Shown here one piece after another: positions 17,058 to 44,953 of a DNA stretch of 64,000 bases. The notes under the pieces are model-generated. The model ran no database searches. It was given only the letters and a program-made list of their open reading frames with translations, and was not told where the DNA came from. Each line of letters starts with the position of its first letter. Position 1 is the stretch's first letter. Source of the stretch: Candidatus Multivoradales bacterium. GTDB lineage: Bacteria; Acidobacteriota; Thermoanaerobaculia; Multivoradales; Multivoraceae. The translations under genes were made by a program, and so were the position numbers. The DNA is taken from the NCBI GenBank assembly GCA_965223325.1, contig CBDCWI010000002.1, positions 2,784,001 through 2,848,000 of the forward strand, read 5' to 3'.

Positions 17058-18152
17058 TCAACTGGCGTTGCGCCGACGCTTGCGCCTTCCTGAACCCTCG
17101 ACGCCGCGCAGGAACTCGAGCAGGCAACGGTCGAGCCACTCGATCTCCATCAGAAAGGCATCGTGCCCATGCGGCGCCTCGATGATCTCGAACTGCACCT
17201 GCGGCAGCGCCTCGGCCAGTTCCTCCTGATCGCCGAGGACGTAGAGCTGGTCGGAGCGCACTCCGACGACGAGAGCCGGGCTGTCGAGCTCGGCGGCGAC
17301 TTCTTGCCACGGTCGATCGCGACCGCGGCCGAGGTCGTGACTGTCCATCGCTTCGGTGAGGCGAATGTAGGTATTGGCATCAAAGCGCTGAACCAGCTTG
17401 CTGCCCTGGTAGCGCAGGTAGTTCTCGACTTCGAAGGCGGTCTCTAGAGCTTCGGTGGTGCGCACTTGTCGAGCAAACCTCTCGGTGAAGCTCTCCTGGC
17501 TGCGGTAGCTGATCAGTGCCATGGCCCGCGCCGCCGCCAGACCGTGGCGCGGCCCCGAACCGAGGCGGTAGAAGCCGCCACTCCAGTTGCGATCCGCCCG
17601 AATGGCCTGGCGCTGCGCCTCGCTTATACCGATGCACCAGGCCGAGTGAGCCCCCGAAGTGCAAACCGGCGCGATCGCCTGCACCCGCTCAGGAAACATT
17701 GCCGCCCACTCGAGCACCTGCATGCCTCCCATCGACCCACCGACTATCAGGCGCAAGCGCTCGACGCCGAGCGCCTCGAGCAGGCGCGCCTGGACGGTGA
17801 CCATGTCGCGAATCGTGACCTGCGGGAAGTCGGCGCCCCAGTGAACGCCGCTCCCCGGCCGCAGCGTGGTGGGACCCGTAGTGCCGTAGCAACCCGCAAG
17901 CACATTGCTCGCAATGACGTAGTTGTCGGCCGGGTCACACACCCCTCCGGGCCGGAAGAGCGTCTCCCACCAGTCGTCGGCATCGGCTGATCCGGTGAGC
18001 GCATGGCAGACAAGAATGGCTTCGCTCTCTGGAGTACCCCAGGTGCGATAGGCGACATCGATGCCGCGCAGCACTTCTCCACTCTCGAGACGAATTGGCG
18101 CCTCGAGCGTCTGGATCTGGGTCTCCGGGGAGACCAGGGAGCGATAGATCAT
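17058..18152 (-). CDS. metX: homoserine O-acetyltransferase MetX
   Basis: CHALTG, GGSMGG, RFDAN, HGHDAFL. Confidence 0.95.
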   Translation of the reverse strand: MIYRSLVSPETQIQTLEAPIRLESGEVLRGIDVAYRTWGTPESEAILVCHALTGSADADDWWETLFRPGGVCDPADNYVIASNVLAGCYGTTGPTTLRPGSGVHWGADFPQVTIRDMVTVQARLLEALGVERLRLIVGGSMGGMQVLEWAAMFPERVQAIAPVCTSGAHSAWCIGISEAQRQAIRADRNWSGGFYRLGSGPRHGLAAARAMALISYRSQESFTERFARQVRTTEALETAFEVENYLRYQGSKLVQRFDANTYIRLTEAMDSHDLGRGRDRPWQEVAAELDSPALVVGVRSDQLYVLGDQEELAEALPQVQFEIIEAPHGHDAFLMEIEWLDRCLLEFLRGVEGSGRRKRRRNAS

Positions 18153-18178: not shown

Positions 18179-19528
<1,350 letters not shown>

Positions 19529-19571
19529 TTACCTCTGCAACTTCGTCTCGAGTCTTCAAACGCGCAATACG

Positions 19572-19608
19572 CAACAAACCCGCCACGACGAAGTCGCCGA
19601 GGCGGGTT
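19572..19608 (-). terminator. attenuator terminator hairpin upstream of metY
   Basis: AACCCGCC (19577-19584) / GGCGGGTT (19601-19608) with inner CGAC/GTCG stem; on minus strand followed by an imperfect U tract (UUUGUUG). Confidence 0.65.
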
Positions 19609-19641
19609 AGGTTCAATCGTTTCCTGGACTCTTCGAAAACG

Positions 19642-19782
19642 TCAGGGAAGCTTTCGCCTCCACCCCGCCTGGCTCATCGACGCGCAACACATGCAGCTGA
19701 CGGCGACCGGCATGCACCGGTGACGCTCGTCCCAGGAGGCCACAGGTGCCTTGGCGATGGAAGTTGAGTTTGTGCGGATCAT
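19642..19782 (-). CDS. putative Cys/Met-rich leader peptide of metY-metX (46 aa)
   Basis: MIRTNSTSIAKAPVASWDERHRCMPVAVSCMCCASMSQAGWRRKLP*; 4 Cys + 3 Met in codons 23-36; followed by terminator hairpin; alternative start at Met24. Confidence 0.65.
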   Translation of the reverse strand: MIRTNSTSIAKAPVASWDERHRCMPVAVSCMCCASMSQAGWRRKLP

Positions 19783-19950
19783 GATGCGGGCTCAGGAGCC
19801 TAGCAGAATCTTGCCTGTGGGGTGCGACAAGCGCTCGAATCTCGTGATTGCCAGAGATCGAGCCCTCATCGGAACCATGGCCGTCCCTATGCGTACAGCG
19901 GGTTTAGAATCCGGGCAACAAGCTGACTGAACATCTCCCAGGAGTTCCCA

Positions 19951-22719
19951 ATGAACGCCACCTTCTCGCGCACGGCTACCGCTCTGGCGACCAACCTGCT
20001 TCTCTCTGTTTTCCTCGTCTCGAGCCTCGGCACCACGCCCGCACTGGCCGCAGATAGCGCACTCGAGATCCCGTTCGAGAAGTTCGTTCTCGACAACGGC
20101 CTCACCCTCATCGTCCATGAAGACAAAAAGGCTCCGATCGTTGCCGTCAACGTCTGGTACCACGTGGGCTCGAAGGACGAAAAGCCTGGCAAGACCGGTT
20201 TTGCGCATCTGTTCGAGCATCTGATGTTCAACGGCAGCGAGAACTTCGACGACGACTACTTCAAGGCGATCGAGAAGGTCGGCGCTACCGATCTCAACGG
20301 CACCACCAACGCCGATCGCACCAACTACTTCCAGAACGTCCCCAAGACCGCTCTCGACACGGCACTGTGGCTCGAGTCCGACCGCATGGGGCACCTGAAA
20401 GGCGCCATCACCCAGGAGCGGCTCGATGAGCAGCGCGGCGTCGTCCAGAACGAGAAGCGGCAGGGAGAGAACCAGCCCTACGGCAAGGTGTTCACGGCGC
20501 TCGGTGAGAACTCCTACCCCGAGGGCCACCCCTACTCGTGGCCGACGATCGGCTCCATGGAAGACCTCAATGCCGCCAGCCTCGAGGACGTTCACGACTG
20601 GTTCGACAGCAAGTACGGCGCCGCCAATGCGGTCCTGGTAATTGCCGGTGACGTAGACGCGCAGGCGGTCAAGGCAATGGTCGAGCGCTACTTCGGTGAC
20701 ATTGATTCCGGCCCACCGCTACCGAAGAAGAAGGCATGGATTGCCAAGCGTTCGGGCGAGAAACGCGTCGTCATGCAGGATCGGGTTCCGCAGGCCCGGG
20801 TGTACCAGGTGTGGAACATTCCCGGCTGGGGTACCGAGGCCCTCGACACCCTCGACATCGCCTCGACGATTCTCTCCAACGGCAAGACCGCTCGGCTCTA
20901 CCGTCGGCTGGTCTACGAAGACCAGATCGCCACCGACGCCGGTGCCTTCGTTCTGCCGCGTGAACTCGGCGGCCTGTTCATCGTCCAGGCCAGCGTAGTG
21001 CCCGGTGGCAACGTCGCCGCGGTCGAGAAGGCACTCTCCGAAGAGCTGCAGAACTTTCTCGAAGAAGGACCCAACCCCGACGAGCTCGAAAGCGCCCTGA
21101 CCGTGACCCGCGCTGGCTTCATTCGCGGTGCGGAACGGATTGGCGGCTTCGGCGGCAAGTCCGACATCCTGGCAGCGAGCGAAGTCTACGGCGGTTCACC
21201 CGACGCCTACCTCGAGACCATGGCCTGGCAGGACCAGCTCGATGCCACGACCATTCGCGAGACCATGCGCGAGTGGCTCTCGGACGGCAAGCTGACGCTC
21301 GAGGTGCTGCCGTTCCCGGAATACAACACCAAGACGACCGATGTCGATCGCAGCACCCTCCCGGTGCCCGACACCTTCCCGGTCGGTGACTTCCCCAATG
21401 CCGAGCGCACCAGGCTCTCCAACGGTCTCGAGGTGGTGTTCGTCGAACGCCGCGCTGTGCCGGTCGTCAACATGCGGCTGTTGGTCGACGCAGGCTACGT
21501 TGCCGATCACAACGGCAAGTCGGGCGTTGCCAGCCTCGCCATGGACATGCTCGATGAGGGCACCACCACCCGCACCGCGCTCGAGATCTCCGAGGAAATC
21601 TCGAAACTCGGCGCGCGCCTCGGTGCCGGCTCGAACCTCGACACCAGCACCGTCACCCTTTCGACGCTCGCCGAGAACCTCGACGCATCGCTCGAGATCT
21701 TCGCCGACGTCATCCTCAACCCGAGTTTCGATGACGGGGAGCTCGAGCGGCGCCGGGCCCAACGGCTCGCCGGAATCCAACGCGAGAAGGCGCAACCCAC
21801 GCAGATGGCCCTGCGCGTGCTGCCAAAGCTGCTCTACGGCGGGGACCACCCCTATGGCATGCCGTTCACTGGAACCGGCACCGAGGGTGACGTGCAGAGC
21901 ATCGAGCGGTCCGACCTGGCTGGCTTTCACCAGACCTGGTTCCGGCCCAACAACGCACGCCTCCTCGTCGTCGGAGCAACCAGCCTCGATGAAATCACCA
22001 CGAAACTCGAAGCAGCCTTCCGGAGTTGGAAACCAGGCGACGTGCCAACAAAGAGGATTCCGGAAGTCGAACTCGCCAAGGGCCAGAAGATCTACCTCAT
22101 CGACAAGCCCGGCGCTGAACAGTCGATCATCTTCGCTGCCCACGTCATGCCGCCCAAGGCCAACGACGACGAGACCGCGCTGCAAGCAATGAACGACGTT
22201 CTTGGTGGCAGTTTCACCGCGCGCATCAACATGAACCTGCGCGAAGACAAGCACTGGTCGTACGGAGCGCGTTCGATGGTCATCGATGCCCGTGCCCAGC
22301 GCCCCTTCTTCGTGATGGCACCAGTCCAGACAGACAAGACCAAAGAGTCGCTCGAAGAAGTGATCTCGGAAGTCACCGGACTGGTGGGAGAGAATCCGGC
22401 AACCGAAGACGAGCTGGCGCGGGTCAAGGACCAGAACACCCTGACTCTCCCCGGTCGCTGGGAGACCTCCAACGCCATCCTCGGTGACCTCGCTGAGATC
22501 GAGACCTTCGACCTGCCGGAAGACTGGTGGTCGACCTACGGCGACCGCGTCAAAGGACTCGACCTCGATCAGGTCCGAGGCGCGGCAGAAAAGTACCTCC
22601 ATCCCGACAACATCGTCTGGGTGGTCGTCGGCGACCGGAGCGTTGTCGAGGAAGGCCTACGCGATCTGGGAGTCGGCGACATCGTGGCACTCGACCCCGA
22701 CGGCAACCTGGTTGAGTAG
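19951..22719 (+). CDS. M16 family zinc peptidase (PqqL-like, fused halves), exported
   Basis: GFAHLFEHLMF inverted zinc motif, second inactive M16 half, NLREDKHWSYG; signal peptide; AGGAG SD. Confidence 0.95.
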   Translation: MNATFSRTATALATNLLLSVFLVSSLGTTPALAADSALEIPFEKFVLDNGLTLIVHEDKKAPIVAVNVWYHVGSKDEKPGKTGFAHLFEHLMFNGSENFDDDYFKAIEKVGATDLNGTTNADRTNYFQNVPKTALDTALWLESDRMGHLKGAITQERLDEQRGVVQNEKRQGENQPYGKVFTALGENSYPEGHPYSWPTIGSMEDLNAASLEDVHDWFDSKYGAANAVLVIAGDVDAQAVKAMVERYFGDIDSGPPLPKKKAWIAKRSGEKRVVMQDRVPQARVYQVWNIPGWGTEALDTLDIASTILSNGKTARLYRRLVYEDQIATDAGAFVLPRELGGLFIVQASVVPGGNVAAVEKALSEELQNFLEEGPNPDELESALTVTRAGFIRGAERIGGFGGKSDILAASEVYGGSPDAYLETMAWQDQLDATTIRETMREWLSDGKLTLEVLPFPEYNTKTTDVDRSTLPVPDTFPVGDFPNAERTRLSNGLEVVFVERRAVPVVNMRLLVDAGYVADHNGKSGVASLAMDMLDEGTTTRTALEISEEISKLGARLGAGSNLDTSTVTLSTLAENLDASLEIFADVILNPSFDDGELERRRAQRLAGIQREKAQPTQMALRVLPKLLYGGDHPYGMPFTGTGTEGDVQSIERSDLAGFHQTWFRPNNARLLVVGATSLDEITTKLEAAFRSWKPGDVPTKRIPEVELAKGQKIYLIDKPGAEQSIIFAAHVMPPKANDDETALQAMNDVLGGSFTARINMNLREDKHWSYGARSMVIDARAQRPFFVMAPVQTDKTKESLEEVISEVTGLVGENPATEDELARVKDQNTLTLPGRWETSNAILGDLAEIETFDLPEDWWSTYGDRVKGLDLDQVRGAAEKYLHPDNIVWVVVGDRSVVEEGLRDLGVGDIVALDPDGNLVE

Positions 22720-44763: not shown

Positions 44764-44953
44764 AGCACCCTCCTGCCAGGCACGGACTGCTGGCGTTCTG
44801 ACTCAGCGAATCGGAATCAGGGCCGAGGCTAGCAGTGAGAACCGCCGCACCGGCTATTGCTCGGTGCCGGCGCGGAACTTTGCCCACGTCAACACGTAGA
44901 CCATCCCGTATTCTCTGGTATCGATTCCACTCGCCTCAGACAGGAGCCGCTCG

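Follow-up and report, generated by a model that had tools for sequence, protein, structure and literature searches.

The DNA analysed in this study, referred to below as the window, is a stretch of 64,000 nucleotides. Its minus strand carries the metY-metX operon, and profile searches upheld the identities originally proposed for both genes: the first regulated gene, metY, encodes an O-acetylhomoserine sulfhydrylase (TIGR01326, 692 bits, E 2e-208), and the second, metX, a homoserine O-acetyltransferase (NF001209, 378 bits, above the cut-off of 331). The spacer upstream of metY is 455 nt long and is bordered at its far end by a divergent M16-type peptidase gene, which starts at position 19951 (plus strand). 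No Pfam family was matched by the remaining ORFs overlapping this spacer. According to the original prediction, the spacer accommodates a leader-peptide attenuator with a short upstream ORF (uORF) rich in cysteine and methionine codons, a terminator hairpin and a segment that could pair with the 5' side of this hairpin. The features of the locus are as follows.

17058..18152, minus strand: metX, homoserine O-acetyltransferase, second gene of the operon
18179..19495, minus strand: metY, O-acetylhomoserine sulfhydrylase, first regulated gene
19572..19576, minus strand: weak U-rich tail, UGUUG (UUUGUUG with U19578 and U19577 added, which take part in the basal pairs of the stem)
19577..19608, minus strand: candidate intrinsic terminator hairpin (5' half 19608-19595, 3' half 19590-19577)
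19642..19782, minus strand: leader uORF, 46 codons if started at ATG 19782 and 33 if started at the in-frame GTG 19743; stop codon UGA at 19644-19642
19646..19661, minus strand: small hairpin GGAGGC-GAAA-GCUUCC, directly 5' of the uORF stop codon
19664..19673, minus strand: region 2, putative 5' strand of the antiterminator, GCCAGGCGGG; predicted to pair with 19606-19600 and 19598-19596 when the 3' arm of the terminator is absent
19675..19716, minus strand: putative regulatory cluster spanning codons 23-36 (C M P V A V S C M C C A S M), with four Cys and three Met codons
19706..19711, minus strand: region 1 (GCCGGU), candidate anti-antiterminator partner, predicted from this single sequence to pair with 19673-19667 when region 3 is absent
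19780..19785, minus strand: CATGAT, tentatively a -10 box, aligned with the -10 box of a relative from the same genus (L008) and overlapping ATG 19782

The uORF is located on the sense strand of the 5' leader, and 147 nt separate its end from metY. The 46-codon frame described previously, with its concentration of Cys and Met codons (C23, M24, C30, M31, C32, C33 and M36), can be read directly from the nucleotide sequence and corresponds to the peptide M I R T N S T S I A K A P V A S W D E R H R C M P V A V S C M C C A S M S Q A G W R R K L P (stop). A scan of this peptide, i.e. the product of the window's own uORF, identified no Pfam or NCBIfam family. Equivalent uORFs are present in the leaders of related bacteria. 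Cys or Met is specified by 7 of the 14 codons of the cluster, compared with a genome background of approximately 2% (Cys 0.64% and Met 1.40% in 357 long ORFs of the same genome).

Open reading frames and stable hairpins are both common in GC-rich DNA, which would favour a trivial explanation of the locus, namely a chance ORF situated beside an unrelated hairpin. The chance background was counted over all six frames of the window's own genome (6.69 Mb, 64% G+C). Stop-free windows of 10 codons with at least five Cys or Met codons were found 220 times genome-wide; by simple arithmetic, about 0.007 such windows are expected per three frames of a 450-nt spacer, which argues against coincidence. Among the upstream regions of nine metY-family, metX and cysK/M-type genes of this genome, a Cys/Met cluster was unique to the metY spacer.

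The GC-rich hairpin at 19608-19577 has a predicted energy of -23.6 kcal/mol, compared with a mean of -10.3 kcal/mol for shuffled sequences (z -5.53), and none of 200 shuffles was as stable, in agreement with the original proposal. The UUUGUUG tract said to follow the hairpin about 80 nt before metY is also present, and the hairpin ends 81 nt before the metY start codon (ATG 19495). A simple terminator scan of positions 19300-20100 called no terminator, because this U-tract is weak and falls short of the applied criterion (at least five T in eight nucleotides). The gene on the far side of the spacer is transcribed away from it, so the hairpin cannot serve as that gene's terminator, which also weakens the case for an unrelated hairpin. 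Home-made terminator finders, tried in a search for a wider regulon, were abandoned as too noisy: 107 of the 220 genomic Cys/Met clusters had some hairpin downstream.

Immediately downstream of the codon cluster, region 2 includes the segment AGGCGGG (19670-19664, codons 38-40), which, as previously noted, can form complementary pairs with CCCGCCU (19606-19600) on the 5' side of the hairpin. The duplex between region 2 and the terminator 5' half has a predicted energy of -21.7 kcal/mol (shuffle mean -16.5 kcal/mol), and 8 of 300 shuffles performed as well. Folding of both states of a 111-nt leader gave -45.3 kcal/mol for the terminated form and -39.8 kcal/mol for the form in which the antiterminator was forced. 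The two states thus differ by 5.5 kcal/mol and are close in energy, as a kinetic switch needs. The small hairpin 5' of the uORF stop codon appeared in every fold computed, and the whole-leader folds were unremarkable (z -1.1 to -2.4). In a fold of 19625-19480 the GGAG sequence of metY was not sequestered.

One further complementarity was noted in this region: positions 19551-19532 (minus strand), between the terminator and metY, could form about 15 pairs with the terminator 5' half and loop (19605-19587, minus strand). This pairing, which came from a spurious mir-49 alignment, was rejected, as it is absent from the predicted minimum-energy fold.

The window was also compared with known RNA families. 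A search of Rfam with positions 19000-20400 at E values up to 10 produced only mir-49 noise, the whole window contained no match at the gathering score, and in 11 orthologous loci, searched at E values up to 0.1, the sole match was a tRNA, with no riboswitch or T-box. The leader of the window therefore matches none of the SAM-I to SAM-VI, SAM/SAH, T-box or amino-acid leader families of Rfam, and a known SAM riboswitch or T-box, the elements against which the original prediction had to be set, was found neither at this locus nor at its orthologues.

We then examined the conservation of the leader. Among 41 related genomes, orthologous metY genes (73-82% identity) were detected in 11 besides the window's own genome, which gave 12 loci. 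A three-part leader, consisting of (i) a Cys/Met-rich uORF, (ii) a GCGGG-type segment and (iii) an ACCCGC...GCGGGU hairpin with a U-rich tail, was present in 7 of them, the window included (L001, L003, L006, L008, L010, L011 and L012), and absent from the other 5 (L002, L004, L005, L007 and L009). The conservation of a Cys/Met-rich uORF in relatives, expected under the original prediction, thus extends to 7 of the 12 orthologous loci. Within 600 nt upstream of these metY genes, runs of 10 codons with at least five Cys/Met codons occurred on the sense strand in 6/12 loci and on the antisense strand in 0/12; with at least four such codons the counts were 7/12 and 1/12, respectively. In three of the loci (L003, L006 and L012) the terminator ends 191-251 nt before metY, and the intervening leader of 190-250 nt has no Rfam match.

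The bias was also evident in a wider sample of 80 named metY loci spread over many phyla, in which the window's own lineage does not appear by name. Within 300 nt upstream, at least five Cys/Met codons in 10 were found at 34/80 loci on the sense strand and at 0/80 on the antisense strand, and at least six in 10 at 24/80 and 0/80, respectively. Such strand-specific recurrence before metY is difficult to reconcile with a chance ORF. A three-part layout like that of the window was recognized in L032 and L034 (labelled Gammaproteobacteria), L057 (Gemmatimonadetes), L038 (Acidimicrobiia), L031 (Chloroflexi) and L081 (Calditrichota).

The leaders of the metagenome-assembled genomes (MAGs) L032, L034 and L057 belong to the same sequence family as that of the window (98-122 bits), and their metY genes are 73-76% identical to the window's metY. 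Two explanations offer themselves: metY and its leader move as a unit, or the taxonomic labels of these MAGs cannot be relied on.

Many Bacteroidota carry poly-Cys uORFs before metY, followed by a different 3' part. In L047, L048, L053, L054, L061, L073, L078, L086, L088, L099 and L106 these uORFs lie 80-180 nt upstream of metY and end in long Cys runs, often together with Met (...MCCCCM stop, ...CCCCMCCCCMCC stop, ...CCMP stop). Most of these loci are without a clear GC-rich terminator of the window's type. Judged by their sequences, the Bacteroidota uORFs give the impression of the same principle realized in a different architecture.

Two covariance models were built, R1 from nine leaders and R2 from 29, and the sequence of the window was left out of both. 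R1 recovered the window's leader at full length and on the correct strand (19566-19728, minus strand; 16.1 bits, E 0.014 in 201 kb), as did R2 with model positions 1-158 (19565-19730, minus strand; 24.4 bits, E 0.0011 in 136 kb). Recovery by models constructed without it again speaks against a chance origin of the element. The copy in the window is a low scorer (16-24 bits, compared with 40-120 bits for other members of the family). In a sample of the window's order, R1 matched 57 of 151 genomes at E <= 0.01, representing 34 of 63 genera, with some of the matches covering the terminator part only; a sample drawn from the window's phylum gave matches in no more than 4 of 151 genomes at E <= 0.001. 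On the basis of these model scores, the window's element most simply belongs to a widespread leader family, of which it is a divergent and low-scoring member.

The models were also run over the window's own genome, with 150 of the thousands of first-look candidates scored in each case. Among these, R1 gave no match at E <= 1, and R2 gave nine matches at chance level (E 0.39-9.6); the window's own element was listed in neither search because so small a part of the candidates was scored. No further copy of the leader emerged among the candidates scored; the four R2 matches that were inspected all lie inside long ORFs. The best of them (L145, G000:C2:3495412-3495600; 20.3 bits, E 0.39) is a GATGTG tandem repeat within a long ORF and not a leader. 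Elsewhere in the window, a GC-rich palindromic hairpin at 44845-44875 matched the terminator part of R1 and R2 on both strands with scores no better than chance (10.8-12.3 bits) and probably represents an ordinary bidirectional terminator. In another genome, a second full-length R1 match (G037:C1:275617-275755, minus strand; 44 bits) is located approximately 2.7 kb upstream of the same genome's metY leader, which suggests that a neighbouring gene has a leader copy of its own.

The genes downstream of the leader were assigned for 26 new loci from the order search:

metY: 13 of 26 loci (on the basis of N-termini)
cysteine synthase family (cysK/M-type): 5 of 26 (L131, L132 and L134 scanned; L133 and L137 assigned by likeness)
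metX: 1 of 26 (L116, scanned)
aspartate kinase: 1 of 26 (L129, a leader with weak Cys/Met content)
RimK-type ligase: 1 of 26 (L140)
no gene assigned: 5 of 26

The leader family sits before sulfur amino-acid genes. At least four Cys or Met codons within eight were found in 28 of 33 family leaders, and the uORF stop codon precedes the end of the model match by 63-87 nt in 30 of 33. The order of the two residues varies from leader to leader (e.g. MCMCM, MCCCVC, CCCACACM and MSMCC) and the content is kept, which suggests that the constraint lies in the coding and not in an RNA motif. Across the family, the conserved blocks are separated by spacers of variable length and sequence. Among the Cys codons of 30 family leaders, 51 were TGC and 44 TGT, i.e. 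46% TGT, compared with 26% TGT in long ORFs of the window's own genome, although the genomes entering this comparison differ; a rarer codon may be favoured in the sensor, or the RNA itself may be constrained (UGCAUGUGU). The phase of the GCGG segment relative to the Cys/Met frame is not constant (17, 9 and 4 of 30 leaders, with one skipped) and is uninformative with regard to coding.

The nucleotide-level conservation of UGCAUGUGU and of the terminator would be compatible with a different kind of element, namely an RNA that binds a metabolite or protein (e.g. an unclassified SAM sensor), in which the ORF is incidental. We consider this distinctly unlikely, given that no Rfam family was recognized even at E values up to 10, the spacer between the blocks is variable and the whole-leader folds are not unusually stable. 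The kept Cys/Met content in varying codon order, within a frame that stays open to a stop codon at a fixed distance (30/33 leaders), is likewise not what an incidental ORF would lead one to expect.

The hairpin of the window aligns at the terminator positions of both R1 and R2. Across the family, 97.8% of the cells of the terminator helix are paired, compared with 33-49% in slid controls; 6 of its 11 pairs are invariant and 3 change on both sides. The hairpin can thus be regarded as a strong and conserved candidate intrinsic terminator, at which transcription would be predicted to end.

The evidence concerning the antiterminator, a short helix, is of a more mixed nature. The leaders of relatives carry an equivalent GCGGG segment, and the segment that pairs best with the terminator 5' half starts 57-70 nt upstream in 27 of the 29 family leaders. 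Compared with shuffles, this pairing reached p <= 0.05 in no more than 10 of the 29, and compared with natural GC-rich windows in 7 of 29; many natural windows match region 2 in the quality of their pairing with the terminator 5' arm, a point in favour of the chance explanation. RNAalifold, applied to a MAFFT alignment of leaders cut before the terminator 3' arm, did not recover the antiterminator helix, because MAFFT leaves the GCGGG segments out of register. The helix finds its best support in distant members of the family, since their upstream segments differ along with their terminators: the segment covaries with the terminator in L081 (CCGGAAGGG against CCCTTCCGG) and in L031 (GGTCGCGG against CCGCGATC), and L038 and L057 behave alike. 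The antiterminator helix is therefore likely, as far as can be judged by comparing sequences. Taken as a whole, the explanation by chance is already very unlikely, as it would need the entire comparative signal to be an artefact.

The reading frame of the uORF stands as originally described, but its proposed start codon, ATG 19782, may not be the true one, as it lies inside the stretch aligned with a -10 box. In the same-genus relative L008 the promoter consists of TTGACA, a spacer of 17 nt and CATGAT; the window shares CATGAT, and its -35 position is occupied by CTGCTA, a poor match. Should CATGAT be a true promoter element, ATG 19782 would be untranscribed, and GTG 19743 would start a uORF of 33 codons. 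The latter codon is preceded by AAGG, five bases upstream, and the Cys/Met cluster is in frame with either start. A simple promoter and terminator scan of 19300-20100 called no sigma-70-like promoter. With a pattern of our own (a TTGACA-type box, a spacer of 16-18 nt and a -10 box ending 6-11 nt before an ATG), sites were found in 12 of 33 family leaders, and no site was found in the leader of the window. Many uORFs of the family look leaderless, because of this short distance between the -10 box and the ATG in 12 of the 33.

The degenerate -35 sequence (CTGCTA, compared with TTGACA in the relative), the failure of the scans to call a promoter or terminator and the low model scores (16-24 bits, compared with 40-120 bits) would also fit a decaying relic, i.e. 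a copy which no longer regulates in this genome and belongs to a family that is functional elsewhere. Such a relic seems rather improbable, in view of the intact Cys/Met cluster, region 2 and hairpin of -23.6 kcal/mol and of a frame that is still open to a stop codon in the usual place.

We consider it probable that the element is a ribosome-mediated transcription attenuator of metY-metX, which would read charged Cys-tRNA and/or Met-tRNA. The comparison lends support to this reading, first put forward in the original prediction: the features that it foresaw at the sequence level, i.e. a conserved uORF, a candidate terminator and a complementary segment, were found, with no riboswitch at the locus. 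From the existence, conservation and placement of these parts we infer uORF translation, ribosome stalling, termination, read-through and a response to methionine and cysteine. The leader would be transcribed toward metY and the short uORF translated. With cysteine and methionine plentiful, the ribosome would pass codons 23-36, region 2 (19673-19664) would be covered by the ribosome or paired back with region 1 (19711-19706), the hairpin at 19608-19577 would form, and transcription would stop approximately 80 nt before metY. Under a shortage of charged tRNA, the ribosome would stall at C30-M31-C32-C33 and cover region 1, the free region 2 would pair with the terminator 5' half once this had been made, and RNA polymerase would read through into metY-metX. 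Judged by the geometry of the ribosome footprint, an A site positioned at C30-C33 would leave region 1 covered and region 2 free; a stall at M36 would cover region 2, and therefore M36 could not act in the proposed manner. Against the attenuator reading stand the 5 of 12 orthologous loci without the leader, the short antiterminator helix with its limited statistical support, the low model scores of the window's copy, the poor U-tract, the degenerate -35 sequence, the uncertain start codon and the inability of M36 to act as proposed.

The weak U-tract is also relevant to another reading, according to which the uORF is a real sensor that acts through translation or Rho, with the position of the ribosome altering the access of Rho, the stability of the mRNA or the accessibility of the metY ribosome-binding site. 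There are precedents for this: mycobacterial Cys uORFs are described as working on translation in the available text of Canestrari et al. (bioRxiv 10.1101/834739), and in that of Seliverstov et al. (2005, PMC1262725) the actinobacterial cys leaders are without terminators. The strength of the hairpin, its nearly invariant sequence and the conservation of the U-rich tail across the family would be hard to account for in this way, as would the unsequestered GGAG of metY in the fold of 19625-19480, and we regard such a mode of action as unlikely.

If the attenuator reading is extended beyond the window, Cys/Met leader peptides may constitute a major, unpublished form of control of metY and neighbouring sulfur amino-acid genes, a generalization that we favour by a little. 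They would be common in the window's order and occur also in MAGs labelled Gammaproteobacteria and Gemmatimonadetes, with poly-Cys versions common in Bacteroidota; the charging of tRNA would be read by the ribosome, and one leader would integrate two amino acids. If true, such leaders would hold the place taken in model organisms by SAM riboswitches, T-boxes or MetJ/MetR. Confirmation would account for metY regulation in Bacteroidota and in numerous little-studied, GC-rich lineages of soil, and the layout offers a simple annotation rule for spotting unannotated mini-genes before metY.

Transcription attenuation by leader peptides is known from the trp, his, leu, thr, ilv and pheA operons of Proteobacteria, while textbook control of methionine genes is exerted by SAM riboswitches, T-boxes and repressors (MetJ/MetR in model organisms). 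Like the classical attenuators, the window contains (i) a uORF rich in codons for the amino acids of the pathway, (ii) a candidate terminator before the first gene and (iii) a segment predicted to pair with the terminator 5' arm, and the proposed logic is that of ribosome position. Unlike them, it would read both Cys and Met codons, the operon is that of direct sulfhydrylation (metY-metX), the stop codon lies about 20 nt past region 2 and not within or before it, and the uORFs of relatives often begin 6-11 nt after a -10 box, which gives them a leaderless appearance. Our searches of the literature brought to light no leader-peptide attenuator with Cys/Met codons, either for metY or for methionine genes in general, in keeping with the original supposition that a mixed Cys and Met sensor is undescribed.

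The closest published systems differ from the window in several respects. The mycobacterial polycysteine ORFs are leaderless short ORFs which act on translation and sense charged Cys-tRNA, and the available text of the preprint states that uORF-mediated attenuation for cysteine was previously undescribed (Canestrari et al., bioRxiv 10.1101/834739). They share with the leaders described here the Cys-codon uORFs and the downstream sulfur genes, and their leaderless translation recalls the leaderless appearance of many uORFs of the family. As presented there, the mycobacterial ORFs contain consecutive Cys runs, their Cys tract pairs with the downstream Shine-Dalgarno sequence, and they are without an intrinsic terminator, whereas in the window Cys and Met codons are interspersed (with at most two consecutive Cys), a terminator hairpin is present and no pairing with the metY GGAG is predicted.

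A predicted ribosome-mediated attenuator, the uORFC-8-2 motif of cysS in Rhodobacterales, combines a uORF containing conserved Cys codons with a terminator stem and a U run (Brewer et al. 2021, PMC8632094). By its description in the available part of that paper, it is set apart from the window by two tandem Cys codons, the lack of Met codons, a tRNA synthetase gene as target and its occurrence in Alphaproteobacteria. For the actinobacterial cys operons, candidate leader ORFs with Cys runs near the stop codon were proposed and no terminators were found, according to the available text, which also reports no conserved RNA structure upstream of methionine operons (Seliverstov et al. 2005, PMC1262725). 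The window resembles these leaders in its short Cys-rich upstream ORF and differs from them in its terminator hairpin.

The metXZ RNA element of beta-proteobacteria has six conserved regions, a pseudoknot and a proposed terminator-antiterminator arrangement, with no uORF mentioned in the text available (Leyn et al. 2014, PMC4239095). Both there and in the window, a leader with a terminator precedes genes for the conversion of homoserine to homocysteine. The two are set apart by description, as the metXZ terminators are not conserved in sequence, whereas those of the window's family are nearly invariant, with a uORF as the putative sensor. The accessible portions of three further papers (PMC2965389, PMC6429828 and PMC13236596) contain nothing further on Met or metY. 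Thus, the mechanism proposed for the window is a textbook one, and its amino-acid specificity (Cys and Met) and target operon appear to be unpublished; if confirmed, the oldest known mechanism of RNA-based control would gain a new amino-acid specificity, for Cys together with Met.
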